A stretch of DNA of 64,000 nucleotides from an uncultured Gemmatimonadales bacterium (GTDB lineage: Bacteria > Gemmatimonadota > Gemmatimonadetes > Gemmatimonadales > GWC2-71-9). Shown piece after piece: positions 14,716 to 43,553 of this stretch. The stretch is taken from positions 2,660,209-2,724,208 of the forward strand of contig CAWCMH010000001.1 in assembly GCA_963796635.1 (NCBI GenBank), read 5' to 3'. A program made the position numbers and the translations under genes. Every line of letters begins with the position of its first letter. Position 1 is the stretch's first letter. Below the pieces are notes generated by a model. It did no database searches. It saw only the letters and a program-made list of their open reading frames with translations, and had not been told where the DNA came from.

Positions 14716-14738
14716 GTGGATCTCCAGTTGAGGTGTGT

Positions 14739-26820: not shown

Positions 26821-27993
26821 ATGACGCGGTACCTCATCGTCGGCGGCGGGATGACGGCCGATGCCGCGGCCCACGCGATTCGCGAACGCGATCCCGACGG
26901 CGCTATCGTGATGGTCAGCGCCGAACCCGACCCGCCGTACAATCGCCCGCCGCTCACCAAGGGGCTGTGGAAGGGCGACGCCTTCGACACGATCTGGCGC
27001 CCGCCCGCACCTGGCAACGTCGATGTGCATCTCGGCCGTCGCATCGTCTCGCTGCGGCTCGCCGCCCACGAGGCCGTCGACCAGACCGGCGCCGTGCATG
27101 CGTTCGACAAGCTGCTGCTGGCGACGGGCGCCGCGCCTCGCCGACTGCCGTTCGGCGGCGACGACATCATCTATTACCGCACCGTCGCCGATTATAGGCG
27201 ACTCCGCACCGTCGCCGACGGGCACGGCTCGGCAATCGTGATCGGCGGCGGGTTCATCGGATCGGAAATCGCCGCGGCGCTCACGATGAACGGGTGCCGG
27301 GTGACCATGATCTTCCCCGAAGCCGGCATCGGTGCTCGTCTCTTTCCCGCGGATCTCGCCGCCCACCTGCTCGCATATTACCGCGACAAGGGCGTGACCG
27401 TGCTCGCGGGCGCACACGTGCGGAACATCCAGCGGACTGGCGCCAGCGTGACGGTGACCCTCGACGATGGGACGCAGCACGCCGCGGACGTCGTGGTGGC
27501 GGGCATCGGCGTGGCTCCCGACACGCAGCTTGCGGAGGCCGCAGGCATCGCGACCGACGACGGCATCCTGATCGATGCGCAGCTGCGCACCTCCGCGCCC
27601 GATGTGTTTGCCGCCGGCGATGTGGCCCGCTTTCACTCCCCGCAACTCGGCACGCTGATGCGCGTGGAGCACGAGGACAACGCGCTCACCATGGGGACGG
27701 CGGCCGGCCACGCCATGACGGGCGATGCCACGGCGTACACGCACCTGCCCTTTTTCTATTCCGACCTCTTCGAGCTCGGGTACGAAGCGGTGGGCGAGCT
27801 GGACCCGCGACTCGACGTCGTGGCCGACTGGAAGACGCCGTTCCGGGAAGGCGTGATCTACTACCTGCAACGCGATCGCGTGCGCGGCGTGCTGCTCTGG
27901 GGAATCTTCGGCAAGGTCGACGACGCGCGCGCGCTGATCGCAAATCCCGCATCGACCAGCGCCGCCGGGTTGCGCGGCCGGATCGTGACCTGA
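26821..27993 (+). CDS. FAD-dependent pyridine nucleotide-disulfide oxidoreductase (ferredoxin-reductase/AIF-like)
   Basis: YLIVGGGMTADAAA (FAD GxGxxA), VIGGGFIGSEIAA (NAD), FAAGDVA motif. Confidence 0.8.
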   Translation: MTRYLIVGGGMTADAAAHAIRERDPDGAIVMVSAEPDPPYNRPPLTKGLWKGDAFDTIWRPPAPGNVDVHLGRRIVSLRLAAHEAVDQTGAVHAFDKLLLATGAAPRRLPFGGDDIIYYRTVADYRRLRTVADGHGSAIVIGGGFIGSEIAAALTMNGCRVTMIFPEAGIGARLFPADLAAHLLAYYRDKGVTVLAGAHVRNIQRTGASVTVTLDDGTQHAADVVVAGIGVAPDTQLAEAAGIATDDGILIDAQLRTSAPDVFAAGDVARFHSPQLGTLMRVEHEDNALTMGTAAGHAMTGDATAYTHLPFFYSDLFELGYEAVGELDPRLDVVADWKTPFREGVIYYLQRDRVRGVLLWGIFGKVDDARALIANPASTSAAGLRGRIVT

Positions 27994-27998
27994 CCGCG

Positions 27999-28889
27999 AT
28001 GCAATACCGCCGCCTCGGCCGGAGCGGTATCCCGGTGTCGGTGATCGGCATCGGCACCTGGCAACTGGGCGGCGAGTGGGGCCATCAATTCACGCAGGAC
28101 GAAGCCGACGCGATTCTCGACGCCGGCGCCGATTGCGGCATCGACCTGATCGACACGGCAGAATGTTATGGCGACCACCTGTCGGAGCGGCTGGTGGGCG
28201 ACTATCTGGCGCGGCGCGACCGGTCGCGCTGGGTCGTGGCCACCAAGTTCGGCCACGAGTTCGAGGGCTTCCTCAAGCGTCGCGACGATTTTTCGGTCGA
28301 CGGCGTGCGCCGTCAACTCGAAGCATCGCTGCGGGCGTTGCGGGTCGATTGCATCGACCTGTACCAGTTCCATTCCGGGCCCGATCGCGCCTTCGCCGAC
28401 GATGCATTGTGGTCGATGCTCGATACGCAGCGTCGGGCCGGCAAGGTGCGCGCGCTGGGAGCGTCCCTCAACAAGACGACCACCGCGCAAGCCGACTGGG
28501 CGGCCCAGCGCGGCGTCGATGTCATCCAGGTGGTGTACAACCGGATCGATCGCGCCGCGGAAACGGTGCACTTTCCGTTTGCCGAACGCGACAACCTCGG
28601 TGTGCTGGCGCGCGTGCCGCTGGCGAGTGGATTGCTGTCGGGAAAATACGGCCCGGATGCGCACTTCCCTGCCGACGACGTGCGCGCACGGTGGTCCGTC
28701 GAGACGCTGCAGCGCCAGCTCGATGCCGTGGCGGAGGTCCGGCGCAGCGAAGTCCCGGCGGGTACCGCGATGGCGCCGTGGGCGATTGCGTGGTGTCTCC
28801 GGCATCCCCGGGTGACCGCGGTGATTCCCGGATGTCGCACCGCAGCGCAGGTGCGCGACAACGCGGCGGCGGTGGCCTTGATGGAGTGA
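27999..28889 (+). CDS. Aldo/keto reductase
   Basis: MQYRRLGRSGIPVSVIGIGTWQLGG, IDTAECYG, VVATKFGH and IPGCRTAAQVRDNA motifs. The track ORF from 27294 is an out-of-frame extension. Confidence 0.85.
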   Translation: MQYRRLGRSGIPVSVIGIGTWQLGGEWGHQFTQDEADAILDAGADCGIDLIDTAECYGDHLSERLVGDYLARRDRSRWVVATKFGHEFEGFLKRRDDFSVDGVRRQLEASLRALRVDCIDLYQFHSGPDRAFADDALWSMLDTQRRAGKVRALGASLNKTTTAQADWAAQRGVDVIQVVYNRIDRAAETVHFPFAERDNLGVLARVPLASGLLSGKYGPDAHFPADDVRARWSVETLQRQLDAVAEVRRSEVPAGTAMAPWAIAWCLRHPRVTAVIPGCRTAAQVRDNAAAVALME

Positions 28890-28924
28890 GAAGCGACTCG
28901 ACCGCGCGGGTGTCGTACCGGTCC

Positions 28925-29068
28925 CTCGATCACCGTCTCCGCCGGTCGCGCCGGTGTTGCCAAGCGACGCACGAGCCGGCGCGTGACGCGAATGCCTTCG
29001 GCGCGGCACCACGCCATCACGTCGCGCGCAATGGCACGCTGCGACAGCGTGGCGGCGGCGTCCGGCAT
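28925..29068 (-). pseudogene. 3'-truncated third copy of the 95-aa module gene
   Basis: MPDAAATLSQRAIARDVMAWCRAEGIRVTRRLVRRLATPARPAETVIE matches the first half of the 95-aa proteins at 31472-31759 and 33663-33950. Homology stops near 28925, about 35 nt from the aldo/keto reductase stop, and the frame then runs into antisense of that gene. Confidence 0.6.
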
Positions 29069-29784
29069 GCATCACGTCCCGTACACGCTTGCGCGGTGTC
29101 GCGCAGGGCATACGTCGGCGGCTCGTCGGGGCCGTGATACTGCACGACCCCATTCCGCCGCAGCGCTTCCGATTCCCCGTCCGCCTCGGCGCGCACGCGC
29201 GCGAGATACGGATCAACCCACGGGCCGGTGTACCGCGGCACTGTGACGGGATCATTGCGACGCGGTGGTGACACTGGCGGCTCCGGTCCCCACGGATACT
29301 GCAGCGGCGCGTGTGGCCGCCGCCAACTCGATGGCACCGAGCGCCGCAAGGGGGGCCGGCCCCAGCCGGGGAGCTCGAGACCAGTGGCGAGGCGGTGCGC
29401 GTCGGGTGTCTTCGCTGTCGCGCTCGGCGCGGAGTGTTCGACCGGATCCTTCGGTCGCCGCCGCCCGATGCGGAAGCCCACCGCGCCGGTTTCCAGTGCC
29501 AGATGCAGCGTACGCAGCTGCTTCAGGACCTTGGCCAGCGCGTCGACATCCAGATGTGCATACGCCGCGACGCCGTCCCGCTCCAGGGCCGCGCCCACCT
29601 GCTGCGCGGCCCAGGTCGCGGGGAGGGCTTCCACCAACCGCGCTGCGCCCGCGTGTGCAACTGCCAGGCACGAGTGAGGCGGGCGGGGTCGTGATTGTTG
29701 GTCATCGCAAATCCCGTGTCTAATCCCGAACGGCGCGGATGTCGCCGTTCGGGTAGCTTGATCTGGTTCCGCTACGCTGGCCAC
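29017..29784 (-). CDS. PGWGRP-motif module protein, paralog 1 (probably degenerating)
   Basis: The C-terminal GLELPGWGRPPLRRSVPSSWRRPHAPLQYPWGPEPPVSPPRRNDPVTVPRYTGPWVDPYLARVRAEADGESEALRRNGVVQYHGPDEPPTYALRD is conserved with the other two paralogs. Where the paralogs have a stop codon (TAA in the 33983 copy) this copy has CAA, giving a read-through tail. A paralog-like N-terminus (MTNNHDPARL, from 29705) sits in another frame. Confidence 0.45.
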   Translation of the reverse strand: MASVAEPDQATRTATSAPFGIRHGICDDQQSRPRPPHSCLAVAHAGAARLVEALPATWAAQQVGAALERDGVAAYAHLDVDALAKVLKQLRTLHLALETGAVGFRIGRRRPKDPVEHSAPSATAKTPDAHRLATGLELPGWGRPPLRRSVPSSWRRPHAPLQYPWGPEPPVSPPRRNDPVTVPRYTGPWVDPYLARVRAEADGESEALRRNGVVQYHGPDEPPTYALRDTAQACTGRDACRTPPPRCRSVPLRAT

Positions 29785-29805
29785 ATGGCTGCGCCGCCAC
29801 GCTGT

Positions 29806-30327
29806 TCAGTCCCACAGCAGCAGCAACGAACTGCTTGCGAGTGGATCGCCGTGTTGATCGAACAGGGTAATTCGGACGCCGGTGGGTGCCTTCACGTCGG
29901 GTACGGCGTACCGAGCGAATAACGCTCCTGGCGACAATACCGCTACGACGTACCCACCAGCCCAACGGGCCAGATTCTCAATGGACAAGGTGCGCTCGCT
30001 GACGGTGACGTAGCTCCCGGGACGGTTATCGCCACCGCCCCCTGCTTCCTTCGGGATAGGCGAAACGAATACCTCTTCACGAACTCTACCAACGAATCGG
30101 CTTGGTAATCCGAACGCAGCTACCTGGACAGTATCCGAATCATCGTTTTGCGACCATTCCGAATCGGGTGGCGGGTTGACCTCGTGTTGCCCTAGGAGCA
30201 GTCGAGGAAAAAACTGCACCATAACGTGTTCCGGATAACCGGCCCGCGATCCAATCGGTGCGCGTGTGCGTTCACAGGACGCTCCGCTAGACACGCAGGC
30301 GATGAGCAAGAGGATGCGATATTTCAT
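29806..30327 (-). CDS. Lipoprotein, putative immunity protein for the orphan LAS/M15-like toxin
   Basis: MKYRILLLIACVSSG lipobox. Its ATG overlaps the toxin stop (ATGA at 30324-30327). Visibly more A/T-rich than the flanks. Confidence 0.6.
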   Translation of the reverse strand: MKYRILLLIACVSSGASCERTRAPIGSRAGYPEHVMVQFFPRLLLGQHEVNPPPDSEWSQNDDSDTVQVAAFGLPSRFVGRVREEVFVSPIPKEAGGGGDNRPGSYVTVSERTLSIENLARWAGGYVVAVLSPGALFARYAVPDVKAPTGVRITLFDQHGDPLASSSLLLLWD

Positions 30328-31475
30328 GGCCACGCCAAGTGAATGTGATTCATGTGTTCGGCACGCAGCGGGTTGTTGACGATCGGCAGCGGACCTCGAC
30401 CGTTTTCGTATTTTCCAGCAGGACCCAGGTCTCCCCCGACCGCACGAAGTCCGCCCAGAGAATTGGCGACGGCTTGGACTCGTCCCGCGATTGCACCCAT
30501 GCCGGGGTTCGTGTGCCGGCCGTTGCCAATGTCCCTGCCGTTAATCCAACCGATGTCGGCTGCTAGCCCTTGCGCGTGGGCGCTCGACAGATGATGACCG
30601 TTTGTGGTCGCGTTTAGACCCAGATCGACATCGGCGGCGTCGGCAACTGCTTGCAAATGGGCCAACGTACTCCGTCGAAGCCCCGCGAGCGAAGCGCCTA
30701 ACACGCGGCCTTCAGGGCTGATCGTTACCTGACAGGCCCTCGGCTTGCCACTTGGATCTTCACAGGCCGCCAACCCCACCGGATCCCGGAAGCTATTGGG
30801 ATCATTCCCGTTGTACTCGTACAGATTGGTGCCGCCCGCCAGACCCGCGTGATCCTCCTGCAGCCAGCTCCCCGTGGCCGGATCATACTGCCGGGTTCGG
30901 AAACTCGAGATGGCACTCGTCGTATCCGTCGCCAGCCGGCGCGGGTCGAACGTCTGCGCCCGCTGCGTGATCCCGCTGGTCGCCCACGTGCCGCTCGCAT
31001 ACGTCGACGGGTTCTCGTACACATTGTTGTACGTCCCCGCCGAGTCCGCGATCGACACCAGCTGGCCCATCCCATCGGACACCAGCGACAATCGGGCCTG
31101 CGCCAGCTTCGTGTCGCCCACCCGCTTGATCGCCACCAGCGGCTCGTCGAGCCCGGGGGCGTACACGTAAAACCACCCCAGCTGCGGCGCCCGGATGGCG
31201 TCGTGGCCCAGGAGCGAGAACGGTGCGCCGCCGCAGCCCTGATACATCCGGCCGTCGGGATCGTAGCTGCAGCTGTTGGGCGCCGTGTTCAGGTTGTGCG
31301 TATAGCCCACCATCCGGCCGGCGCCGTCGTACTCGAACCCATTCACGTTCGTGAACGTGGCGTTGTAGTCGTCGCGCCGGGCACCATCGCGATCGTACTC
31401 GTAATACTGCGACGCCGTGCCGGCACCGACCAGCGTCCCGAGATCCGGTGATTCGCGCCACGGCGTACCTGTCAC
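30324..31475 (-). CDS. Orphan RHS C-terminal fragment (core tip + LAS/peptidase-M15-like toxin domain)
   Basis: Residues from TLVGAGT to [10 protein letters not shown] are near-identical to the main RHS protein. After DPVG a unique domain carries SAHAQGLAAD (SxHxxGxAxD) and EHMNHIHLAW (HxH), as in LAS-fold peptidoglycan peptidases. Confidence 0.8.
   Translation of the reverse strand: MTGTPWRESPDLGTLVGAGTASQYYEYDRDGARRDDYNATFTNVNGFEYDGAGRMVGYTHNLNTAPNSCSYDPDGRMYQGCGGAPFSLLGHDAIRAPQLGWFYVYAPGLDEPLVAIKRVGDTKLAQARLSLVSDGMGQLVSIADSAGTYNNVYENPSTYASGTWATSGITQRAQTFDPRRLATDTTSAISSFRTRQYDPATGSWLQEDHAGLAGGTNLYEYNGNDPNSFRDPVGLAACEDPSGKPRACQVTISPEGRVLGASLAGLRRSTLAHLQAVADAADVDLGLNATTNGHHLSSAHAQGLAADIGWINGRDIGNGRHTNPGMGAIAGRVQAVANSLGGLRAVGGDLGPAGKYENGRGPLPIVNNPLRAEHMNHIHLAWP
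30774..31437. repeat. rhs core-tip repeat (copy in orphan 1), 664 bp near-identical to 36304-36967
   Basis: Direct reading of the aligned sequence. Identity starts at ccccaccggatcccggaagc (the DPVG codons) and ends at caccgaccagcgtc. Confidence 0.9.
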
Positions 31476-31759
31476 CCCGTCTCGATCACCCGCGCGATGG
31501 CCGCCACTACCTGCACGACGTCACCCGCCTGGTACGACCACGTCGCTGTCCGATGCGGCATCCGCACCTCGACATGCTCCGTGTACACGGCGACCACGGT
31601 GTCATCGAGTTCCAGTTCGATCACCGTCTCCGCGGGCCGCACCGGCGCCGCCAGTCGACGCACGAGCCGGCACGTGACGCCAATCCCCTCGGCCCGGCAC
31701 CACGCCATCACATCGCGCGCGATGGCGCGCTGCGACAACGTGGCGGCGTCGTCCAGCAT
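31472..31759 (-). CDS. 95-aa module protein (unknown function), copy A
   Basis: High GC3. Differs from the copy at 33663-33950 at only a few residues. Its stop overlaps the orphan rhs GTG start (GTGA). Confidence 0.65.
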   Translation of the reverse strand: MLDDAATLSQRAIARDVMAWCRAEGIGVTCRLVRRLAAPVRPAETVIELELDDTVVAVYTEHVEVRMPHRTATWSYQAGDVVQVVAAIARVIETG

Positions 31760-31779
31760 GCATCAAGTGCCGCGCACGC

Positions 31780-32355
31780 TTACACGTTGTCGCGCAGGGC
31801 ATACGTCGGCGGCGCATCCGGGCCGTGATACTGCACCTCGCCGTGCCGTCGCAGCGCTTCCAATTCCCCGTCCGCCTCGGCGCGCACGCGCGCGAGCCAG
31901 GGATCAACCCAGTACGGGCCCGTGTACCGCGGCACCGTGACAGGATCACTGCGACGCGGCGGTGAGACCGGTGGCTCTGGTCCCCACGGGTACCGCAGCG
32001 GCGCGTGCGGGCGCCGCCAACTCGATGGCACCGAGCGCCGCAAGGACGGCCGGCCCCAGCCGGGGAGACCGGGACCGGACGCCTGATGGTGCACGCGCGG
32101 TGCGGGCGCTGGCAGCGTCGCTGCCGCCAGCCCCGTGTTGATCTTCCCGTTGCGACCCACGCCGAGCGCGCGAGCCAGGCGGTCGACTTCGTGGAGCAAA
32201 CCTCGAAAGCCGGTGAAATCGTTGTGGGCGATGTATCCCGTCGCACGGCGGCGCCACGCCCGTTCCAGGGGCTGCACGGCGGCGAGCCGCGGCAACGCTT
32301 CCAGCAGCATGCGCAACCGGTCGTCGAGTTTCAGGATGTCGTAGTTGAAGGGCAT
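31780..32355 (-). CDS. PGWGRP-motif module protein, paralog 2 (full length, 191 aa)
   Basis: High GC3. Variable N-terminal half (..HEVDRLARALGVGRNGKINTGLAA..) and conserved Pro/Trp/Arg-rich C-terminal half. 20 nt upstream of the 95-aa gene. Confidence 0.6.
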   Translation of the reverse strand: MPFNYDILKLDDRLRMLLEALPRLAAVQPLERAWRRRATGYIAHNDFTGFRGLLHEVDRLARALGVGRNGKINTGLAAATLPAPAPRVHHQASGPGLPGWGRPSLRRSVPSSWRRPHAPLRYPWGPEPPVSPPRRSDPVTVPRYTGPYWVDPWLARVRAEADGELEALRRHGEVQYHGPDAPPTYALRDNV

Positions 32356-32588
32356 GGTTCACCTCGGTTTCTTCTCGAGATCAGTTGCACTCGGCACAGC
32401 AGCGCTGGCGGCGTTACCGCCGCCACCGCCGTGTTGGTGTGTCCATTGCGGCCCACGTCCGGCGTGCAGGCCGTTGCATCCACTTCCTCGGCAACGCGAG
32501 GAACTCTGCCTCGTCGCGCTGCCGTTCGTACGCCGTCACCCCCGGCCTCGTCATGCGATTCGCCGAGTCCACGCAGGCAGTGCATCAA
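32331..32588 (-). other. Diverged N-terminal fragment of a PGWGRP-family gene
   Basis: EEVDATACTPDVGRNGHTNTAVAA aligns with HEVDRLARALGVGRNGKINTGLAA of the full-length paralog. Lies between the DUF2283-like gene and paralog 2. Coding status is uncertain. Confidence 0.35.
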
Positions 32589-32824
32589 TGGAATTCCACC
32601 ATCCGGACGACGCCATCGCGGTCGACATCGAGGATGACCATGAGGCCGTTGACTGATTCGAATACCGTCGAGTTCAATCCAACATCGGCGGTCGTCGACA
32701 CAGCTCCCTCAGCGATTACAATTCGCAGCGAGACGTCGGCCGGCGTGCGCCCGTCAAAATCCGTTTGGTACCGTGGACTGGCTTCGACAAGCTTGATTAA
32801 ATCTTCGAGCAGGATTCTTGCCAT
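32585..32824 (-). CDS. DUF2283-like small protein, putative immunity/antitoxin for orphan 2
   Basis: 79 aa ending LMVILDVDRDGVVRMVEFH, like the DUF2283 C-terminal strand pair. GAGG lies 5 nt upstream of its ATG and 8 nt after the toxin stop. Confidence 0.65.
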   Translation of the reverse strand: MARILLEDLIKLVEASPRYQTDFDGRTPADVSLRIVIAEGAVSTTADVGLNSTVFESVNGLMVILDVDRDGVVRMVEFH

Positions 32825-32832
32825 GGCAACCT

Positions 32833-33666
32833 CTAAGGAATTGGAGTCCAGCGCGGAGCACCGTCGAACAACGTTTCCGGGATAAATGTCATCTTTATGC
32901 TGGTGACGACGTTCGTGCTGGTAGCGTCGGTCACCACGTAGAGATCCTTACCGCTGGCCATGCCACCGCGAATTACATGCGCGATAGTGCCAGGATGTTT
33001 CGCATCCATGTATTTCTCGCCAACCCGAATAGCAGCCTTGGACATATCGGCCGATATCCCACGCTCCGCGTTGTCGACGGCTTGATGTCGACTTATACTG
33101 ACTGCGGCGTCGGTCGCTTCAACGGCATCGCCCACGGCGGATGTCAAGAGGCCCACGGCCCCAGAAACCAAAACGAGGATAGGGTCGTTGCCAGCTGAAA
33201 CTGGCCTGATCTCTCCGGGATCAGGATGGATTACATGCTTTGCACAGTCTGGACAATCGTCAGGCTGCAGACCCACCGGATCCCGGAAGCTATTGGGATC
33301 ATTCCCGTTGTACTCGTACAGATTGGTGCCGCCCGCCAGACCCGCGTGATCCTCCTGCAGCCAGCTCCCCGTGGCCGGATCATACTGCCGGGTTCGGAAA
33401 CTCGAGATGGCACTCGTCGTATCCGTCGCCAGCCGGCGCGGGTCGAACGTCTGCGCCCGCTGCGTGATCCCGCTGGTCGCCCACGTGCCGCTCGCATACG
33501 TCGACGGGTTCTCGTACACATTGTTGTACGTCCCCGCCGAGTCCGCGATCGACACCAGCTGGCCCATCCCATCGGACACCAGCGACAATCGGGCCTGCGC
33601 CAGCTTCGTGTCGCCCACCCGCTTGATCGCCACCAGCGGTTCGTCGAGCCCGGGGGCGCCGATCAC
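32833..33666 (-). CDS. Orphan RHS C-terminal fragment (short core tip + DUF4258-like toxin domain)
   Basis: [16 protein letters not shown]...[10 protein letters not shown] is identical to the main RHS tip. The unique tail contains SRHQAVDNAERGISADMSKAAI...LYVVTDATSTNVVTS, resembling the DUF4258 pattern (H.A..R...RgIs...v). Confidence 0.75.
   Translation of the reverse strand: MIGAPGLDEPLVAIKRVGDTKLAQARLSLVSDGMGQLVSIADSAGTYNNVYENPSTYASGTWATSGITQRAQTFDPRRLATDTTSAISSFRTRQYDPATGSWLQEDHAGLAGGTNLYEYNGNDPNSFRDPVGLQPDDCPDCAKHVIHPDPGEIRPVSAGNDPILVLVSGAVGLLTSAVGDAVEATDAAVSISRHQAVDNAERGISADMSKAAIRVGEKYMDAKHPGTIAHVIRGGMASGKDLYVVTDATSTNVVTSIKMTFIPETLFDGAPRWTPIP
33272..33658. repeat. rhs core-tip repeat (copy in orphan 2), 387 bp near-identical to 36305-36691
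   Basis: Direct reading. Same DPVG-side boundary as the other copies; the upstream boundary is at cccgggggcg. Confidence 0.9.
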
Positions 33667-33950
33667 CCCGTCTCGATCACCCGCGCGATGGCCGCCACTA
33701 CCTGCACGACGTCACCCGCCTGGTACGACCACGTCGCTGTCCGATGCGGCATCCGCACGTCGACATGCTCCGTGTACACGGCGACCACCGTGTCATCAAG
33801 CGCGAGCTCGATCACCGTTTCCGCGGGCCGCACCGGCGCCGCCAGTCGACGCACGAGCCGGCACGTGACGCCAATCCCCTCGGCCCGGCACCACGCCATC
33901 ACATCGCGCGCGATGGCGCGCTGCGACAGCGTGGCGGCTTCGTCCAGCAT
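33663..33950 (-). CDS. 95-aa module protein (unknown function), copy B
   Basis: Near-identical to 31472-31759. Same GTGA overlap with the downstream orphan rhs fragment. Confidence 0.65.
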   Translation of the reverse strand: MLDEAATLSQRAIARDVMAWCRAEGIGVTCRLVRRLAAPVRPAETVIELALDDTVVAVYTEHVDVRMPHRTATWSYQAGDVVQVVAAIARVIETG

Positions 33951-33982
33951 GCATCACGTCCCGTGCACTGACCAGGTGCGTC

Positions 33983-34333
33983 TTACGCGGTGTCGCGCAG
34001 GGCATACGTCGGCGGCTCATCCGGGTGACACTGCACCTCGCCATGCCGTCGCAGCGCTTCCAATTCCCCGTCCGCCTCGGCGCGTACGCGCGCGAGCCAG
34101 GGATCAACGAAACCCGGCGGACCGCTCCCGCGGGACACACAGGGATCGCTGCGACGCGCTGGCGAAACCGGCGGTTCATTGCCCCAGGGATACTGGAGCG
34201 GTGGCGCCTCGCGCGGACCGCTGTCCATCACCCGCTTGTTTCGCGCGCCGGACCGGCCCCAGCCGGGAAGGCCGGGACCAGTGGCGAGCCGATCAACCGC
34301 CTCGCGAACCCCTGAATTTATTGGGCTCATCAT
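33983..34333 (-). CDS. PGWGRP-motif module protein, paralog 3 (C-terminal part only, 116 aa)
   Basis: DRLATGPGLPGWGRS...YPWGNEPPVSPARRSDP...FVDPWLARVRAEADGELEALRRHGEVQCHPDEPPTYALRDTA. Its ATG overlaps the stop of the 171-aa gene (ATGATGA). Confidence 0.5.
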   Translation of the reverse strand: MMSPINSGVREAVDRLATGPGLPGWGRSGARNKRVMDSGPREAPPLQYPWGNEPPVSPARRSDPCVSRGSGPPGFVDPWLARVRAEADGELEALRRHGEVQCHPDEPPTYALRDTA

Positions 34334-34845
34334 AAGAGATGATATTCATGTCGCCGGATCGCGCGCTGCCAAGCCGACTTACAATGCCGCAAGTCCGCGA
34401 ACGAAGCGGACGGCTGTATATCGCCAGCCCAGTGTTGCAACCCCGATCCCGATTCCACGTAGGCGACGTTCTTGAGGGCCTCGTAGCATAGTATCCCGAC
34501 AAGTACGCGTTGTCCGCCGATCGTAGCACGAGCTCGCACCGGCCTGTCCAAGCACTCCACCAACTCCCTGACAGCTCGATCTCCGAAGGGCGCGATCGTC
34601 CGAAAGAGGCGCCGGTTACCGTCGAAGCGCCATGTACGGGCCGGTTGCGGCACGAAGGTGCCTGTGAGGGTATCCAGTTGTCGGACCAGCCAAGTCAACG
34701 AGTCAAGTCGAGCGCGTTCGCCACCTCCACTCACGACAACGCGATGCTCAACTTGCAGGCCTACGGTCACTGGCACGGTCTGAGCCGCCGCGAACAGCGC
34801 GGCCCAGAGGCACAACGGCAATTGTGGCGTGCTCAAGATTAGCAT
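34330..34845 (-). CDS. Secreted 171-aa protein (signal peptide), possible second immunity protein
   Basis: MLILSTPQLPLCLWAALFAAAQT signal peptide. GAGGAG upstream of the ATG. A/T-richer than the genome. Sits between the N- and C-terminal parts of a PGWGRP-family gene. Confidence 0.55.
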   Translation of the reverse strand: MLILSTPQLPLCLWAALFAAAQTVPVTVGLQVEHRVVVSGGGERARLDSLTWLVRQLDTLTGTFVPQPARTWRFDGNRRLFRTIAPFGDRAVRELVECLDRPVRARATIGGQRVLVGILCYEALKNVAYVESGSGLQHWAGDIQPSASFADLRHCKSAWQRAIRRHEYHLL

Positions 34846-34857
34846 GTTCTCAACTCC

Positions 34858-35061
34858 TCAGTGACATGACATCACTGCATAGTGGACGTGACTCCGATGT
34901 TCTAACATCAGGTCGCGCAAACGCTGGTCCGCCGCCAGCCCTGTGTTGACCTTTCCATTGCGGCCCATGTCCAACGCGCGGGCCACCGACTCGACTTCTT
35001 CGGACGTGCCGTTCGTCGTGGTGCTTATCCCCCGTGTCGAAATCCGTTGCCATCGCGCCAC
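34858..35061 (-). other. N-terminal fragment of a PGWGRP-family gene (67-aa ORF)
   Basis: EEVESVARALDMGRNGKVNTGLAA aligns with paralog 2 residues around GRNGKINTGLAA, then diverges and stops. The 5' part is overlapped by the lipoprotein gene end. Confidence 0.35.
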
Positions 35062-35828
35062 TTCGCGCTTCCACTCGAGCTCTCATGAACCGGCGTACGC
35101 GCCGGTCGCATTCGGTCTGCACCCGCCAATTGCGCGGCCCTATGCTCTAGACCGTCGATTGCCTGTAGCATGTCGCCGTTACAGCGTGCAGCCGGTGTGT
35201 GTCCGGCGCGCAACGCTTGCGCCAGTGCATTTGCACTGGCGCGATATACTGTTGACAAGCTGTCGTAAAACCTCGCGCCGGCAGCGGCGTCTTGCGCAAA
35301 AGCTCCATCAGGACCTTGGAATAGCACACGCTCCCAAGTCAGGTGATATGCGTGTACGCAAGGAGCGGCGGCGGCGTCTCCGCGACATTCGCCCCGACCG
35401 ATCGCACCGGCCAAGTGCTCAATGATGTCAATTCGACCATCACGGTTGACGTCACGGAGCTCCGGGAGCGCGCATGTACCCAGACCGGACTCGTATCGCT
35501 TGCTAACAGAGTCATGCAGGTCCAGAAGCAGCTCGGCGCTCAGCATCTCCTCAAAGTCGACCGTAACCCAGAGATCGGGCAGCGAGTCGTTGTTGGCAAA
35601 CAAAAGGCGGGCCGACGGCACGACAATCGCGCTGCCAGTAGACCACAACAACAATCGTCTGGCCGGGCTTGAGCGAAACCATTCCAAACGTCGTTCGGGA
35701 GTCTGAGCCACAACCACAGTATCCTGGCCCAGAGCCGTGACGACTGTGCCAAGCGGCGTCTGATCCGATCGTGGCGACGGCCGTCCGCACCCGAGAATGA
35801 CGAGAGTTGCGGCCAGAATCGTTCTCAT
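35025..35828 (-). CDS. Lipoprotein, putative immunity protein for the M23-like RHS toxin
   Basis: MRTILAATLVILGCG lipobox from the ATG at 35828. TAGGAGAAAGCACATG gives a strong SD 10 nt after the RHS stop. A/T-richer than the genome. Confidence 0.65.
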   Translation of the reverse strand: MRTILAATLVILGCGRPSPRSDQTPLGTVVTALGQDTVVVAQTPERRLEWFRSSPARRLLLWSTGSAIVVPSARLLFANNDSLPDLWVTVDFEEMLSAELLLDLHDSVSKRYESGLGTCALPELRDVNRDGRIDIIEHLAGAIGRGECRGDAAAAPCVHAYHLTWERVLFQGPDGAFAQDAAAGARFYDSLSTVYRASANALAQALRAGHTPAARCNGDMLQAIDGLEHRAAQLAGADRMRPARTPVHESSSGSAKWRDGNGFRHGG

Positions 35829-35838
35829 GTGCTTTCTC

Positions 35839-38800
35839 CTATGGCTGATCGACGTAAACGACAGGACCATACCCACTCAAGGAGCCGGCCACCACTACTG
35901 TTCCCGATATGGCTGCGTGAACCGGGGTACCAATTTGACTGCGGATGTCGATGCCTTGGTGTGTCCCGTACACTCCAGTAACGGGGTTCACGCGCGGCCC
36001 AAACGGGGACGTCACGTACTCGTTGCCCGAAATGGGATTCGTTCCGTGAATCCGTTGTAGCTCAATTTGTGGATCGACCGGCGTGCTTTGCCCATTCGCG
36101 AGCGCCGAACCGGCAACATTTATCACGCGTGTCTCGAAATGCAGGTGCGGTCCCGTCGAGCGCTCGCCACCTTCAGCGCCGCCACTCAATCCAATGACGT
36201 CGCCTTGATGAACCCGTTCGCCCTCATGCACGCAGATCTTTGAGAGATGACCGTATCGAGTCTGGACCCGCACGCTGTCATCATCAGGACTGTCTGGACA
36301 CGTCCCCACCGGATCCCGGAAGCTATTGGGATCATTCCCGTTGTACTCGTACAGATTGGTGCCGCCCGCCAGACCCGCGTGATCCTCCTGCAGCCAGCTC
36401 CCCGTGGCCGGATCATACTGCCGCGTCCGGAAGCTGGAGATGGCACTCGTCGTATCCGTCGCCAGCCGGCGCGGGTCGAACGTCTGCGCCCGCTGCGTGA
36501 TCCCGCTGGTCGCCCACGTGCCGCTCGCATACGTCGACGGGTTCTCGTACACATTGTTGTACGTCCCCGCCGAGTCCGCGATCGACACCAGCTGGCCCAT
36601 CCCATCGGACACCAGCGACAATCGGGCCTGCGCCAGCTTCGTGTCGCCCACCCGCTTGATCGCCACCAGCGGTTCGTCGAGCCCGGGGGCGTACACGTAA
36701 AACCACCCCAGCTGCGGCGCCCGGATGGCGTCGTGGCCCAGGAGCGAGAACGGTGCGCCGCCGCAGCCCTGATACATCCGGCCGTCGGGATCGTAGCCGC
36801 AGCTGTTCGGCGCCGTGTTCAAGTTGTGCGTATAGCCCACCATCCGGCCGGCGCCGTCGTACTCGAACCCGTTGACGTTCGTGAACGTGGCGTTGTAGTC
36901 GTCGCGCCGGGCGCCATCGCGATCGTACTCGTAATACAGCGACGACGTGCCCGCACCGACCAGCGTCGTGCGCGTCGAGTCGACGCGGTTGCTCGCCGCC
37001 GGATAGAACAGCGTCGTCAGCGTCGTGGCGAGTCCGTGACTGTTGTCGCCCGTGCGGTCGCCCGAGGCGTTGTAGCTGAAGGTGTCGGTCGTGGTGACGC
37101 CCGCCCGATTCATCAGCGCCTGCACGGCGATGCCGCCGGTGCGATAGTAGCGCGTCGTCGCCTCCGCGGGCATCCAGTCCCCGCAAGGATCGCCGGGGTC
37201 GCCGCCACCGTAGCTGCCTGCGCCAGTGCAATCCATCCATTGGTGCAGGACGCGGCCCATCACATCGACGCTGTCCTGCTTCAGGGCAAAGATGAACCGG
37301 TTGGGCGTGACACCCGAGGTGTTCGTCGACGACAGCTTGCGCAAGGTACCGAGACGGTCGTAGTGCGAGGTCACCGTCATGCCGTCGTACGGGTAGATGA
37401 TTTCGCGCCGACGCCCCAGTGTGTCCCAGAGAAATCGATACACTTCGCTGCGGGACCCTGCGCTCGTCGGCCACTGAGCCGCCAGGGTGTCCAGGTCACC
37501 CGTGCTGTAGTAGCTGTACGCAACGGACTCGCCGGCGCCCCACAACAGGGAATCCAGCTGGCCTTTGGCATTGTACGCCATACGCACCGAGTCGGTCACC
37601 AGCGGAGCCTCGGCGGGGAGATAGGTCGAATCGGGATAATCCGCCTCGGTGTGAATGGTGCCGTCGCTGAAGTAGGTACGCACGATCCGCCCGTGACGGT
37701 TCCGGTGTGTCAACAGATTGCCCACGATGTCGTACGTGCTCGTCACCGTGTCGGGCGGTGCGGTCAACAGTTCACCGCCGGTCGAGACGGTGTCGAACGG
37801 CATGGTCCACCGAGTCAATCGTCCAAGCGAATCGTAACGGAAGGTCAGCGTGTCGCCGAGGCGGGTCTTGCGCCACACCAACTGCCCCGTCGAGTCGTAG
37901 GTAAGCCGTTCGGCCTGCCCCGCTTCATCGGTGTCGGCGATCATCAAGCCACGCTGGTCGTAGCCGAAGCGCTGGGTGACACTGCGATAGTCCAGGACCC
38001 TGGTCAGGCGGCCCAACGTGAATTGGCGGTGAATCTGGATCGGGTGCGTGGTCAGATCATTCAGTATGGTTGGCGAGCACACGAATTCGTTGCCGAGACA
38101 GGCCGCACTGGTCGAATCGATGGTCCCATTGGCGATATCCAGCGTGTCGCGATCCATCGGGTCGTAGAAGTACGTCATCCGGAAATGCAGCGGATTGGTG
38201 ACACCCGTCACGCGACCGGCGCCGTCGCGATAGAAGAGCGTCGCACCACCAGCCGGGTTGTTGACGCGGGCGGAATTGCCGAGCGCATCGTAGCTGACGG
38301 TGGTGACCTGGTTGGTCGTGCTGTCGGCGGAAAGGCTCTGGATCCAGGTCGGCACCGACAGTTCGGTGACGCTGGTGAGCTGGCCCTCAAGCGTTCCACT
38401 GGTGTTGTAGGCATACCTGGTCGCATGCCCGCGCGGATCGAGGATCGAGTCGGTGAGCCCCATCGTGTTGTAGTGAAACTGCGTCACGGTCCCATCGGGC
38501 GCCGTGACCTGGCTCGGCGAGTCGTAGTCGTTGGCGTCGCCATAGACCCACGTGGTCACCTGCTTGGGGAACGCGCTGGTTCCCCACGCACTGTCGGTAA
38601 GCTGCGTCAGATTGCCGCGGGCATCGTATTGCATGAAGGCCTTGCGGCTGTTCGGATAATCGATCTCGCTCACCAACCCCGGTGCGTTGGCCGAGCCGCG
38701 CACATAGCTGGTGACGGTCCCGTAGGCATTCTTCTCCACAATCGGTGCGCCCCACCGGTCGACATGGAACACCGACACATGACCGCTGTTCGCCGGCGGA

Positions 38801-40626
38801 CCGTCGATCGTCGTCACCGCGTTCGCCGTGTCCGACGCACTGTAGCTGCCGCCGCCCGGCAGGCCGAATCCCGCCGCCTGCCATGCGGTGTAATTCGTGA
38901 CCGATGTCGCCGCCGCGCCATTCGACGTGTAGTACACGATCGACTGATCCACCAGCGCATCGGTGCCGTACGCCACCGCCACGGAGTCCTGCCCGCTGTA
39001 GGTCGACATCGCCAGGCGCCGGTCACCGTTGTAGGCAAAATGCATCTTCGTGCCGTCGGGCCAGACCCAGCTGGTCAACTCCGGCGTGCCGCTTACCGTG
39101 ACGGTCGTGTCGACGATGTTGCGCCCGTCGAGCCGCACTCCACTCAGCCGCCCGCTGGCATACTGCACCTTGAATGCCTTGCCGCTGCCACTGGGCGGCA
39201 ATAGCACGCTGTCCAGCTGGGTCGCGCTCGACCACGCAAAGGTCGTGATCTGTCCGGCTCGGTTCCTGGTCTGCACGTGCCGGCCCGTATTGTCGAACAG
39301 CACTTGCACCCCGTGCCGCGTCGTCAGGGTGTACTGGCTGCTCGCGTACGCGATGCTGTCCTGCCCATCGTCGGCTGCCGACATCCACTTGTTGCTCCCA
39401 TCGGCCCGGTAGAAACGTGTCGATCCGTCCCCGTCGACCCACAGAATGCCGGTCCCCGTGCCGGCGGGCTGGCTCAGCACCAGCCGCTCGACGCCAAGCC
39501 ATTCGAACCCGGCGCCGTAGGGACTCTGGTTGCGGTTGACGACCGTGCTGAGCCCGCTGATGCTGGCCGACACCGAATCACCGGACGACGCCGCATACAC
39601 CGTCAGCGTATATGGGTAGATCCCCGTCGCGGTGTTCACCGCGTTCCAGCTCAGTGCAATCTGCCGCGTGGCGTTCTTCCAGCCACCGTACTGCACAGTG
39701 GTTCGCACCGTGTCGTTCACGGTGAGCACCGCCGTGAGGTGATCCGGCACGGGGCCGAGCGGCATGCGGATGTTGGCCGTGATGACCGGCGCCGGCGCCG
39801 CGGTGTTCGACGCATACACGAGCGTCATGCTGCGATCGCGGTCCAGCGTGGTGTAACCGGGTGTCTCGAGGAAATACATCGCGTCGCCGCAGGACCAGGT
39901 GAGCGGACCGCGGCTCGTGGTGAGACAATGGCCACGATTGAAAACGGAATCGTTCTGCTGCGGTTGCGACAACACGGGCGTCGACGGCCCGGTGAATGTC
40001 ATCGCGTACCAGCCGGAGTCGCTGACCACGCCGTCGGTGGCGAAGAGCGAGATCGTGCCGGTGCCGCTCGACGCCGCGGGATAGTTGATGTCGATGTCGA
40101 CCTGCTCGTTGGGATCGAGCGAGACTTCTTCGATGTCGCTGCTGCACGACGGCACCACGCCGGAAACGTGGCAGCTGAGCGTGAACGTCCGCGTGGATGT
40201 CGTCGTGTTCTTGACGAAAAACGTCACGTCGCCGGCGGACCCGGCCCCGGCCGCGAGCGCGCTGTCATCGGGCGTGACGACCACCCATCCGATGATGAGT
40301 GGCCGCGCGGAGCCCTGGTTCGTGACGGGATTCTGCGCGCGCCCCGGCAACGGCAGGAGGGTGACGGCCGCGAAACCGGCGCACAGCGCGCCGGCTCCGA
40401 GCCGCAGGCGGGAACCCCCCGCAGCCACCGGACCGTCGGGGCGCATCGTGGATGCATCCCCGTTCCGATTCGGTCGAGCCGGCCACGGGTGGAGGGTCCG
40501 GTCGTCCAGGGGAGACAACCGGGGGAGCAGCGTCCGGTCCGGGACGGACCGGGGTGGGTGGTGGAGCGCCGCCGCCCAGCGGGCGGCGGTATCACGGGCG
40601 CGAAGCGCCAGTCCTCGGAAGTTCAT
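35839..40626 (-). CDS. RHS/YD-repeat polymorphic toxin with Sec-type signal peptide and M23-peptidase-like (permuted) C-terminal domain
   Basis: Many YD repeats ([40 protein letters not shown]). Core tip ...[16 protein letters not shown]. Signal-like [26 protein letters not shown] after the internal ATG at 40446, an alternative start. The C-terminal 150 aa carry M23 motifs. Confidence 0.9.
36304..36967. repeat. rhs core-tip segment of the full-length gene shared with both orphans
   Basis: Near-identical to 30774-31437 over its full length and to 33272-33658 over its first 387 bp, all in direct orientation. Confidence 0.9.
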
Positions 40627-40925: not shown

Positions 40926-42656
40926 CTACCGTTTCTTCTTCACCACCACCGGGGTCGCAGCGCCCGCCGTAACCGGCTGCAGTTTCGCGCGCTCCTTCAT
41001 CACCAGCCACTGCTGCGGAATCGACGTGATGTTCTGCACGGCGTAGTACAGGTTGAGCCCCGCGGCAAAGCGCGCGAAGAAGATCAGCATCATCGCCGGC
41101 ATCATGTAGGTCATCATCTTGGTCTGCGGATTGGGCGGCAGCCCCATCTGGCCGATCTTCGACACCACCAGCATCGACGCCGCCATCACCACCGGAATGA
41201 TGTACAGCGGATCGGCCCGCGCGAGATCCGGCATCCAGAGAAACGTCACGCCGCGCACTTCGATGGTGTACGCCAGCACGAAGAACACCGCAACCAGCAC
41301 CGGATACGGCAGCAGCATCGGCCAGCAGCCGCCCAGCGGATTGACCTTGTTTTCCTTGTAGATCTTGAACGTTTCCTGCTGCAGTTGCTGCGGGTTGTCC
41401 TTGTACCGGGCCTGCAGCGCGGTGAGCTGCGGCTGGATCGCCTGCATCCTTGCCATCGACCGCATCGCGATCCGGCTCAACGGCCACAGCAGGATCCGCA
41501 CGATCAACCCGAACAGCACGATCACCAGGCCGTAGCCCAGGCCGAGTGCCGTGTGCATCCAGACGAAGATGGCGCGGATGTAGACCGCAATCGGCCGGAT
41601 CATCCAGCGCAGCCACGCCCAGCCGTAGGGATTGACGTCGTCGAACCCATGTCCCATATGGCTCAGCCGGTCGTATTCCATCGGGCCCAGGTACATGGTC
41701 CAGTGGAAATTGCCGGCCGACGTGACCGCCAGCGACGCCGCCACATGCGCGCGCGTGGGCTTGCTCTGCGTGTCGGCGGCAAACGCCTGCACCCCGCCGA
41801 TGTCGCCCCGCGTGCCCTGCGCCGTCGAGTCGTAGGCGAACAGCCCGGCCACGAAATACTTGGACTTGACCGCCGCCCACTCGAACGGCCCGCTCAAGGT
41901 CGTGGCGATCCGGGGCTTGAGGCTGCGGAACAACGTGACGCTGGTCTTGTCCAGCTTGGTCACCACGCCACTGTAATTCCAGTCATCGGCGGGTGTCCAC
42001 TCGGTCGCGCGGAAGCCGTCGCCCAGGTTGACCAGCAGCGTCCCGCCGGCCGGACCCAGGCCGCCGACGTGGCCAGTGACACCGATGCGATAGTCGGTAT
42101 TCGAGAAGGTGTAGGTGAGGTCGACCGTGTAACCGCCCGACTGGCCATGCAGCGTCAACGTGGCCGGCGCATGGACGGCGCTCAACGAATCCGCGCTCGC
42201 GGTGAAATGCATCCGCGACAGTTGCAGCGAGTCGCTGCCGGTCACCAGCGTGCCGCCGAGGAGGCCGTCTCCCGGCGGCAGTAGATGGAGCGTGTCGCGG
42301 TGGTCGGCCTCGGCGAGCGATTGATAGTTCAGGAACCAGCTCGAGATGATCTGACCGCCGCGCGTCGACACGCCATAGCGATACAGCGACGACCGGATCA
42401 CCACCGTGTCGGCCGGCCCGGCGTCGCGGCTGGTATCGGTCACCATTGCGGTCGGGGTCGGCGGGAGTGCGCGCGTCGAGTCGGGCGCCGCAGCCGCCCC
42501 GGCGGGCGATGTCCCGGTCGTGTCGCGCAACCCGGCGCTATCGGCCGCCGCCGCAGCGGCGGTCTGCCGCAGCGCAGCGCGTTTCATGAAGATCGTCGGC
42601 ACCACGGCGATCAGTACGATGGCGGCGAGCGCCAGCATCAGGCGGCGGTCGTTCAT
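40926..42656 (-). CDS. yidC: Membrane protein insertase YidC
   Basis: Large periplasmic domain followed by the conserved WGWAWLRWMIRP...LWPL...MQAIQP....KYKDNPQ...E..K.YKE..VNPLGGC.P.LLQ.P core. Synteny with yidD-rnpA-rpmH. Confidence 0.9.
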   Translation of the reverse strand: MNDRRLMLALAAIVLIAVVPTIFMKRAALRQTAAAAAADSAGLRDTTGTSPAGAAAAPDSTRALPPTPTAMVTDTSRDAGPADTVVIRSSLYRYGVSTRGGQIISSWFLNYQSLAEADHRDTLHLLPPGDGLLGGTLVTGSDSLQLSRMHFTASADSLSAVHAPATLTLHGQSGGYTVDLTYTFSNTDYRIGVTGHVGGLGPAGGTLLVNLGDGFRATEWTPADDWNYSGVVTKLDKTSVTLFRSLKPRIATTLSGPFEWAAVKSKYFVAGLFAYDSTAQGTRGDIGGVQAFAADTQSKPTRAHVAASLAVTSAGNFHWTMYLGPMEYDRLSHMGHGFDDVNPYGWAWLRWMIRPIAVYIRAIFVWMHTALGLGYGLVIVLFGLIVRILLWPLSRIAMRSMARMQAIQPQLTALQARYKDNPQQLQQETFKIYKENKVNPLGGCWPMLLPYPVLVAVFFVLAYTIEVRGVTFLWMPDLARADPLYIIPVVMAASMLVVSKIGQMGLPPNPQTKMMTYMMPAMMLIFFARFAAGLNLYYAVQNITSIPQQWLVMKERAKLQPVTAGAATPVVVKKKR

Positions 42657-42671: not shown

Positions 42672-42902
42672 TCAAGGTACCGGATCATAGCCACCTGGAT
42701 TCCAGGGGTGGCACCGCGCCAGCCGGCGGGCGGCCAGCCAGGTGCCGCGCACCGCGCCATGACGCCGCACGGCGTCGAGCGCGTACTGCGAGCACGACGG
42801 CGTGAACCGGCACGACGGCGGCAGCATCGGCGAGATCACCAGTTGGTAGCCGCGGATCAGGCCCGCCAGCAGCGCCGACGGAAGCCGGCTCAGTCGTCGC
42901 AT
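42672..42902 (-). CDS. yidD: Membrane protein insertion efficiency factor YidD
   Basis: [35 protein letters not shown]...[16 protein letters not shown] is the YidD signature. Confidence 0.9.
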
Positions 42903-43252: not shown

Positions 43253-43411
43253 TCAGACGCGGGCGTGCTTGGAACCGATGGACACCGTCAGCCGCTTCCG
43301 CCCCTTCTTGCGGCGACGCGACAAGACGGCCCGACCCCAACGGTCGGCCATCCGCGTCCGGAATCCGTGCTTGGCAATCCGGCGCTTGTTCCGCGGTCGG
43401 TATGTCGGCAT
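43253..43411 (-). CDS. rpmH: 50S ribosomal protein L34
   Basis: Not in the ORF track (52 aa). My translation is [52 protein letters not shown], matching the L34 consensus (..HGFR.RM....GR.VL..RR.KGRK.L). Confidence 0.85.
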
Positions 43412-43477
43412 CATCGCGGTTAACTCCCTCCTGAAGAGCCGGGCAAGCTACCGGGCTGCGCCCGGAAAGGTCAAGGT

Positions 43478-43506: not shown

Positions 43507-43553
43507 CGGCCTCCCGAAATCACCGCGTTCCCTGCTCCCAAGAAATCGCCACG

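Follow-up and report, generated by a model that had tools for sequence, protein, structure and literature searches.

Rhs loci with orphan cassettes are a textbook case of weapon diversification and antidote retention, and in this family the toxin is freed by self-cleavage at a DPxG motif. For the Gemmatimonadota, we know of almost no experimental work on interbacterial antagonism. Modules composed of an orphan rhs C-terminus (CT) and its immunity gene (rhs-CT/rhsI) were first defined elsewhere (PMC3150448), recombination between a main rhs gene and an orphan has been selected experimentally in Salmonella (PMC3967940), and RHS toxins with a signal peptide form a recognised class, catalogued by Zhang et al. 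(PMC3482391). Here, we describe an island at positions 28925–40626 of a 64-kb stretch of contig CAWCMH010000001.1 (the window; GC content 66.5%, host Gemmatimonadota-like), with all its genes on the (−) strand between an aldo/keto reductase gene and yidC. The region is very probably a chromosomal Rhs polymorphic-toxin locus for interbacterial competition, with stored, potentially recombinable cassettes. While this main finding is confirmatory, its value lies in a clean, fully resolved Rhs example in the Gemmatimonadota, with a putative Sec-type rather than type VI secretion system (T6SS)-type entry into export.

The rhs gene, its orphan fragments and their composition

An initial annotation, made from the sequence alone, had proposed an RHS toxin island between yidC and the reductase gene, and hidden Markov model searches bore this out by detecting RHS/YD repeats and the Rhs-associated core. 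The features of the island, read along the (−) strand, are as follows.

35839–40626 (−), rhs, full-length gene of 1595 aa; RHS_repeat PF05593 E=5.8e-19, TIGR01643 E=4.6e-22, TIGR03696
36304–36967 (−), 3′ core segment of the main rhs gene, repeated in the orphans; blastn of the region against itself
35839–36303 (−), CT0, M23 (LytM/lysostaphin-type) zinc peptidase domain; Peptidase_M23 PF01551 E=4.5e-20, matched in two pieces
35025–35828 (−), imm0, candidate CT0 immunity protein, predicted lipoprotein (MRTILAATLVILGC...); sequence read
34930–35052 (−), remnant of gene A corresponding to A2 residues 34–78; tblastn E=3.5e-7, 75-nt repeat family D5
34330–34845 (−), p171, 171 aa, signal peptide present, no toxin next to it; open reading frame and translation
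33983–34333 (−), A1, N-terminally truncated A of 116 aa; 61–67% aa identity to A2 and A3
33663–33950 (−), B1, 95 aa; 97% aa identity to B2
32833–33666 (−), orphan rhs fragment 1, 277 aa; TIGR03696 E=1.4e-12
32585–32824 (−), imm1, 79-aa cytosolic candidate CT1 immunity protein; starts 8 nt past the orphan-1 stop
32385–32495 (−), second A remnant, corresponding to A2 residues 53–89; tblastn E=0.002, repeat family D5
31780–32355 (−), A2, intact A of 191 aa; homologues in the related islands L014, L015 and L029
31472–31759 (−), B2, 95 aa; repeat of B1
30324–31475 (−), orphan rhs fragment 2, 383 aa; TIGR03696 E=1.4e-12
29806–30327 (−), imm2, candidate CT2 immunity protein, predicted lipoprotein (MKYRILLLIAC...); sequence read
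~29092–29705 (−), A3, decayed A with a frameshift near the 5′ end and its stop lost; 60% aa identity to A2
28925–29068 (−), B3, first 48 codons of B only; tblastn 87.5% identity over B residues 1–48

From its N-terminus, the full-length protein comprises a conserved leader of ~75 aa, a signal segment, an Ig-like N-terminal region, the YD-repeat shell and the Rhs-associated core, which terminates in DPVGT (aa 1438–1442) and is followed by the toxin CT0. The protein thus has the YD repeats, the core with a PxxxxDPxGL-type end and the variable C-termini of the Rhs/YD-repeat family, and its shell matches solved Rhs cores by sequence (PDB 7q97, 8qjb-d). On inspection, the core reads EDHAGLAGG...DPVGT and retains the Asp residues of the aspartyl protease site.

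The 3′ end of this core recurs twice downstream. Orphan 2 shares 664 nt (30774–31437) at 97.9% identity with positions 36304–36967 of the main gene, orphan 1 shares 387 nt (33272–33658) at 99.0% identity with positions 36305–36691, and the two orphan cores are 99.7% identical to each other. Homology of the three rhs copies stops at DPVG(T/L), beyond which the three C-termini are mutually unrelated. In orphan 1, a core of 128 aa ending in DPVGL precedes CT1 (144 aa); in orphan 2, a core of 230 aa, likewise ending in DPVGL, precedes CT2 (148 aa). Both therefore have the make-up of orphan rhs-CT/immunity modules, i.e. shell-less 3′ fragments with core homology and a small gene after each, and the earlier claim of two orphan rhs C-termini carrying different toxins stands, with a shared core of 98–99% identity and unrelated C-termini. 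Equally accurate was its description of a 1595-aa YD-repeat protein followed by tightly packed genes on the same strand: the imm0 ATG, preceded by an AGGAGA ribosome-binding site, lies 10 nt past the rhs stop, the spacer between orphan 1 and imm1 is 8 nt, and the imm2 ATG overlaps the orphan-2 stop (ATGA).

Base composition divides the island along the same boundaries. Outside the island, 400-nt windows have a mean GC content of 0.669 (standard deviation 0.028, minimum 0.59). Toxin and immunity segments have values of 0.581 (imm2), 0.616 (CT2), 0.550 (imm1), 0.558 (CT1), 0.607 (p171), 0.604 (imm0) and 0.578 (CT0), the orphan core fragments 0.666 and the A/B modules 0.69–0.71. All 15 of the lowest-GC 400-nt windows in the 64 kb fall in toxin/immunity segments, so the A/T-rich payloads reported from reading the letters were recovered by windowed GC and by GC content at third codon positions (GC3). 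One of the intervals given for them, 29.8–30.7 kb, was accurate, while another, 34.3–36.3 kb, also spans p171, the gene for a second secreted protein. GC3 is 0.85 for the Rhs shell, 0.86–0.87 for the orphan core fragments, 0.86–0.87 for the B genes (B1, 0.86), 0.81 for A2 and 0.82–0.89 for background genes, as against 0.58–0.61 for the three toxins (CT0, 0.58) and 0.60–0.67 for the four immunity-type genes (imm0, 0.61; p171, 0.67). The step in GC and GC3 lies exactly at the core/toxin boundary (DPxG), and A-B is at host values. This sharply bounded shift separates imported payloads from resident flanks (shell, core and A-B), an unusually sharp partition for composition to give. As to the suggestion that the payloads were horizontally acquired, they are indeed compositionally foreign; their low GC content is compatible with a horizontal origin but is not proof of it.

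Predicted toxins and candidate immunity proteins

CT0 carries the two halves of an M23 peptidase in reverse order. Where canonical members have HxxxD and then HxH, both motifs are present in CT0 with the HxH half (GPHLHFE) N-terminal and the HxxxD half (HQGID) C-terminal; a phmmer search against the PDB placed CT0 residues 14–62 on TagE 110–155 (HxH half) and residues 82–152 on TagE 32–104 (HxxxD half). We re-permuted CT0 in silico by moving its last 76 residues to the front and compared both versions with 120 canonical homologues, the best of 291 retrieved. The re-permuted copy gave one contiguous alignment to 120 of the 120 homologues (median 117.5 aa and 91 bits, identity up to 51%), whereas the native order aligned in two swapped pieces against every one of them. 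Because the re-ordered copy aligns contiguously and the native copy in two swapped pieces, the circular permutation is demonstrated at the level of sequence: CT0 is a circularly permuted M23 peptidase domain, and it keeps the catalytic motifs YGHL, HLH and HQGID. No homologue with the same order was present among the best 120 of the 291 homologues retrieved from 5.8e9 proteins; the single high-coverage match, P0085, proved to be a tandem M23-M23 protein rather than a same-order homologue. Literature searches returned no report of a permuted M23 domain, and a naturally permuted peptidase of this family is of interest to enzymologists and protein engineers.

For CT2, no direct Pfam match was obtained. 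The domain contains the motifs SAHAQGLAAD and HMNHIH and belongs to a small family (P0140–P0143) that is confined to Rhs C-termini, in which H-x2-G-x-A-x-D and HxNHIH are invariant. An hhalign comparison with the orphan toxin of L015, which is positive for Peptidase_M15_3, gave a probability of 96.8% for an alignment that takes in the core tail common to both and reaches no further than the first motif. Judged by its motifs, CT2 is probably a LAS/Peptidase_M15_3-like zinc peptidase. A more extended similarity between CT2 and the L015 orphan, an impression from tblastn, was downgraded since direct BLASTP showed it at motif level only.

CT1 itself had no match in Pfam either; one of its two homologues (P0145) matches DUF4258 weakly (E=1.2e-3, below the Pfam cut-off). 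In the AlphaFold2 (AF2) model, a hydrophobic linker would lead into a C-terminal α2-β4 domain (predicted local distance difference test, pLDDT, 70–79), whose top Foldseek matches are colicin E5, CdiA-CT NC101, MqsR and BrnT, at non-significant E values of 0.03–0.7. The modelled fold suggests that CT1 is probably a BECR-fold, colicin-E5/RelE-like RNase.

The small genes behind the toxins differ in predicted localisation, a signal sequence or lipobox being found on imm0, p171 and imm2 and none on imm1. This pattern fits the toxin compartments, as lipoproteins follow the two toxins predicted to act on the wall and a cytosolic protein follows the putative RNase. Position and predicted localisation lead us to infer that imm0, which matches no Pfam or NCBIfam family, is the periplasmic immunity protein for CT0. 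Toxin and partner also travel together in other islands: directly after the CT1 homologue, L029 encodes a protein 54% identical to imm1, and in L030 a 175-aa protein directly after a CT2 homologue weakly resembles imm2 (38%, E=1.8e-5). CT1 and imm1 are thus co-inherited in L029, and CT2 and imm2, weakly, in L030; imm2 showed no similarity to the immunity-position genes of L015 and L029. p171 has no Pfam or NCBIfam match; it may be a leftover, orphan gene for immunity, or it may encode a second protein of the periplasm.

As regards export, the Rhs N-terminus aligns from residue 1 with the L015 homologue (45% identity), and a hydrophobic signal segment at aa 78–98 ends in a small-residue cleavage-type site, GRA|QNP (AHA|Q in L015). 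Taken together, the conserved extension, the hydrophobic segment and the cleavage-type site point to export via the Sec pathway. The leader upstream of the segment is unusually long, at ~75 residues (AALHxPPRxxPxRT...), and conserved between the window (40330–40626, (−) strand) and L015 (812–1100). No PAAR, VgrG, SpvB or other trafficking domain was detected in Rhs, and a search with the N-terminal 400 aa at E<=1 likewise gave no PAAR or VgrG family. At the locus, the neighbours are yidC and the aldo/keto reductase gene rather than the vgrG or Eag genes of a T6SS effector. The make-up of a Tc-toxin BC component was likewise absent, with no SpvB or β-propeller in Rhs and no TcA-like gene in the island or its immediate neighbours.

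Inter-cassette genes, genomic setting and related islands

A two-gene module, A-B, occurs in three copies, the last of them decayed. The initial annotation had listed module genes and had missed the third, decayed copy (28925–29705) and the two A remnants. At the DNA level, copies 1 and 3 are 84% and 87% identical to copy 2, and A-B copies overall (76–87% identity) are far more diverged than the core fragments. Differences between B1 and B2 are biased to the third codon position. B shows a stop/start overlap with each orphan; translational coupling from B to the orphan, suggested by a GTG that overlaps the stop of B and starts each orphan frame, was nevertheless rejected as a conserved feature because the L014 orphan lies in another frame. 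A 19-nt inverted repeat (84–89% complementary) brackets the A stop and B start in the two intact modules (33918–33936/34039–34057 and 31727–31745/31839–31857); it may form an RNA hairpin or may merely have been inherited with the duplication.

A and B are lineage-restricted genes. The B family comprises six clusters in 5.8e9 proteins, and an exhaustive profile search gave nine matches in 1.84e9 representatives, among which were spurious ones spread over multiple stretches of long proteins. Wherever B was seen (in the window, L014, L015 and L016), it lay at the end of an Rhs cassette or locus. It has no Pfam or NCBIfam match, and its sole PDB sequence match is at chance level (E=0.059). AF2 models it confidently as an α-β5-α fold (pLDDT 85), for which Foldseek found nothing in the PDB below E=0.07. 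A consists of a variable helical N-terminus, a conserved centre rich in Pro, Arg and Trp (GPGLPGWGRP...SWRRPHAPLQYPYG) and a conserved tail, and has no Pfam or PDB profile match.

Three related islands place these genes in context; their gene orders and the coordinates of A are as follows.

L015: Rhs, imm, orphan (M15_3), imm, A, 72 aa, B, convergent gene; A at 7409–8119
L014: A, B, orphan, imm, A, B, orphan; A at 1976–2665
L029: Rhs, imm, A, orphan, imm, orphan, imm1-like ... A ... orphan ... A, no B; A at 7606–8127, 11670–12203 and 14648–15325

From these orders, A (A-B in one sublineage) is a recurrent element that ends a cassette or the whole locus in these islands. Payloads differ in kind and place: in L029 the full-length Rhs carries a toxin of the CT2 family (30% identity, E=5e-15), which in the window is borne by an orphan, and the CT1 family is on an orphan in both; L014 and L015 carry other toxins, the copy number of A and B differs between islands, and the L015 island is flanked by different neighbours. 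The different cassettes, positions and neighbours support a variable, relocatable locus with cassette turnover. An identical, invariant island in all relatives, which the initial annotation had named as an outcome that would count against its reading, was not what we found, as related islands from other, metagenomic assemblies differ in their sets of cassettes. The contig with the CT2 homologue mentioned above, L030 (GCA_022843235.1, JALHOB010000010.1, 1–12125), bears an unrelated Rhs locus in which five or more short modules of orphan toxins are mixed with toxin-antitoxin pairs of the HigB/HTH_3 and DUF433/DUF5615 types and with one pair of Peptidase_M78 and DUF4411. At its contig end (17354–17802), L029 has a ~200-nt tandem direct repeat of 94% identity (blastn against itself).

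The genes around the island are listed next.

27975–28889 (+), aldo/keto reductase (Pfam)
40926–42656 (−), YidC (Pfam)
42672–42902 (−), YidD (Pfam)
flanking gene, RnpA (Pfam)
43253–43414 (−), rpmH (translation read by eye)
43491–44942 (+), DnaA (Pfam)
45210–46328 (+), DnaN (Pfam)
46577–48442 (+), M28-family peptidase of 621 aa

At the distal edge, repeat homology stops at 28925, 35 nt from the reductase stop (28889); at the proximal edge, the rhs start (40626) lies 299 nt from the yidC stop (40926), and this start is supported by conservation of the N-terminus from M1 in the L015 homologue. The distances given in the initial annotation, 35 nt and about 300 nt, thus agree with those measured. 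Its statement that the island interrupts the rpmH-rnpA-yidD-yidC synteny does not hold, however: the block is intact and the island lies immediately downstream of it. With dnaA 2.9 kb from the island, a position a few kb from the origin is plausible by gene content; yet no switch in GC-skew polarity occurs anywhere in the 64-kb window despite the presence of dnaA and dnaN, and only one DnaA-box-like 9-mer, at 43483, was found beside dnaA, so that the term origin-proximal rests on the position of dnaA and gene content only. In many bacteria, recF and gyrB lie downstream of dnaN; here dnaN is followed by the M28-family peptidase gene.

We found no tRNA in the 64-kb window, no terminal inverted repeats at the island and no recombinase domain among its proteins in Pfam or NCBIfam; an integrative island or mobile element would be recognised by an integrase or transposase, a tRNA target and flanking direct or inverted repeats. 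A promoter and terminator scan and an Rfam scan gave no signal above chance. At 90% identity every island protein is a singleton, all of them from a single 3.2-Mb contig, and exact-sequence look-ups of proteins encoded in the window matched no record. The closest YidC in a species-level genome collection, at 67% identity, belongs to a Gemmatimonadetes metagenome-assembled genome (L001, a 5.7-kb contig), and the best match in a metagenome scan reached 42%. L001 is syntenic with the window from dnaA to the yidC stop, where synteny ends; downstream it has genes for a CDGSH-type protein and lactate utilisation rather than rhs. As these downstream genes are found nowhere in the window, no empty site can be reconstructed. 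When L001, L002, L015 and L016 were compared with the window by tblastx, the high GC content made for too much noise, and the end of the L001 synteny was the only result.

Proposed history, rival explanations and comparison with described systems

In our proposal, a Sec leader would export the 1595-aa Rhs, whose YD-repeat shell would enclose the C-terminal toxin until its release by self-cleavage at DPxG. The current payload, CT0, would cut peptidoglycan cross-links, with the lipoprotein imm0 protecting in the periplasm. The two downstream cassettes, each made up of a 3′ piece of rhs core, another toxin and its own immunity gene, would be displaced former payloads; their stored immunity genes could protect against kin firing those toxins, and the 98–99% identical core (387–664 nt) could let recombination by deletion-fusion put a stored toxin on the full-length gene.

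Most economically, the rhs core and A-B would be resident flanks between which foreign payloads are exchanged; A-B is read in this way because of its host-like composition compared with the strongly AT-shifted payloads. An orphan might arise when an incoming core-toxin-immunity-A-B unit crosses over in the core and joins illegitimately past B, pushing the resident cassette downstream. The B/orphan junctions lie 5 nt and ~35 nt past the B stop, with the core entered 387 and 664 nt from its end, and these differences imply separate events. The A remnants, the toxin-less p171, a frameshift in A3 and truncations in A1 and B3 lead us to infer later deletion, and decay towards the distal end.

Several points weigh against this reading. 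Toxin activity, export, cleavage and immunity are all predicted here. The assignments of CT1 and CT2 rest on weak scores: for CT1 the Foldseek and pLDDT values and the sub-threshold DUF4258 match given above, for CT2 an hhalign probability carried in part by the shared core tail. Without a same-order homologue, the permuted M23 domain could be a recent and possibly inactive rearrangement. The host is presumably diderm, and no T6SS signature at the locus explains entry into target cells. An orphan in L015 comes after an immunity gene with no A-B intervening; orphans can thus form without that pair. The nearest relative is at a distance of 67% YidC identity, which leaves acquisition a putative event.

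Among the alternatives, the one closest to our own replaces serial displacement by tandem duplication of the unit from core 3′ end to A-B, with payloads then swapped by double crossover. The repeat unit is indeed arranged head-to-tail with each orphan abutting the end of a B, the cores of orphans 1 and 2 are nearly identical (99.7%), and the two B copies of L014 are apparently followed by the same sequence. Nonetheless, A-B copies at 76–87% identity beside a core at 98–99.7% fit an origin from different donors, or else conversion that is still under way in the core alone, and the two B/core junctions differ in both partners, which calls for at least two independent joins in either model. Duplication and displacement predict the same present structure and are not mutually exclusive; we regard duplication as a minority option that deserves to be kept in mind. 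It is rather unlikely that the low GC content of the payloads reflects selection or mutation bias in fast-evolving toxin and immunity genes instead of horizontal acquisition: the three payloads do share nearly equal GC3 (0.58–0.67) though the toxins are unrelated, and homologous payloads occur mainly in related Rhs islands, but composition changes abruptly both at the DPxG codon and between immunity gene and A, the same CT families occupy different positions in islands of different lineages, and the orphan cores of the very same cassettes keep host GC3.

Decay at the distal end raises the prospect that the orphans and the distal module are functionless rearrangement debris, with no part of consequence besides the full-length gene and its immunity gene. 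In its favour, A3 carries a frameshift and lacks its stop, B3 and A1 are truncated, two A remnants are present, the orphans have neither shell nor export signal, and no promoter or terminator signal rose above chance. Against that, no stop codon interrupts the reading frame of either orphan, of any immunity gene or of B1/B2, all of which are intact, B substitutions are biased to third positions, toxin and immunity genes remain coupled (ATGA overlap, 8-nt spacer) and the core fragments are still 98–99% identical to the main gene, which makes wholesale debris improbable. A similarly low likelihood attaches to a more functional view of the novelties, in which the permuted M23 domain, if active, would be an adaptation (e.g. 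to threading or unfolded storage in the shell and refolding) and A or A-B a module for cassette capture or exchange, or for orphan expression. A recurs after cassette immunity genes in at least four related islands, with host-like composition and under purifying selection; such a module would not be a passive flank and would resemble integron-cassette recombination sites in role, not in mechanism, and lineage-specific inter-cassette genes of this kind could inform toxin-cassette capture. Scarcely credible, finally, is an Rhs protein that acts as the BC cocoon of an insecticidal or otherwise eukaryote-directed ABC (Tc) toxin, or as a teneurin-like adhesin. It could appeal to the YD-repeat shell with a Sec-type leader, the lack of T6SS adaptors and faint precomputed TEN_YD-shell matches recorded for homologues, yet Rhs has no TcA, SpvB or β-propeller domain, no such gene occurs in the island or its immediate flanks, two payloads are predicted peptidoglycan hydrolases with no eukaryotic target, and a small partner gene of matching localisation after each toxin is a hallmark of bacterial self-protection.

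Read as a polymorphic-toxin locus with stored cassettes, the island most resembles the Rhs loci of enterobacteria (E. coli, Dickeya dadantii and Salmonella Typhimurium; PMC3150448, PMC3967940), with which it shares the YD shell, the PxxxxDPxGL core end, a downstream candidate immunity gene, potentially recombinable orphans sharing the core and AT-shifted payloads. It departs from them in having no PAAR, VgrG or T6SS adaptor signature, in its Sec-type leader with a long conserved extension, in its Gemmatimonadota-like host and in the lineage-specific A-B between cassettes; its payloads include predicted peptidoglycan peptidases, whereas those of enterobacterial Rhs proteins are usually nucleases. 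WapA of Bacillus subtilis (class in PMC3482391) likewise combines a Sec signal, and no contractile injection, with a polymorphic toxin/immunity pair, but is wall-associated in a monoderm and carries tRNase toxins, while the host of the island is presumably diderm. Long displaced arrays with replacement at the front, as proposed here, are also known from the Rhs toxins of bee-gut bacteria and from Vibrio cholerae, where effectors are displaced sequentially (PMC5727410, PMC5361080). Those arrays keep some toxin-less immunity genes, with which p171 may be compared, and unlike the island they are linked to T6SS. We know of no conserved inter-cassette gene like A or B described in them.

Among the enzymes, BECR RNases (colicin E5, CdiA-CT NC101, BrnT and MqsR; DUF4258) have in common with CT1 an α2-β4 domain, predicted for CT1, and a small cytosolic partner; with all scores sub-significant and no catalytic residues assigned, this is a resemblance only. 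CT0 has its counterparts in the M23/LytM endopeptidases (lysostaphin, LytM, ShyA and TagE; PDB 5j1l, 6ue4, 4qp5), to which it is up to ~50% identical once re-ordered; the two zinc motifs, HxxxD and HxH, and a catalytic His upstream are common to CT0 and these enzymes. CT0 differs from them in its swapped halves, in new termini placed in a β-hairpin and in its fusion to an Rhs core.

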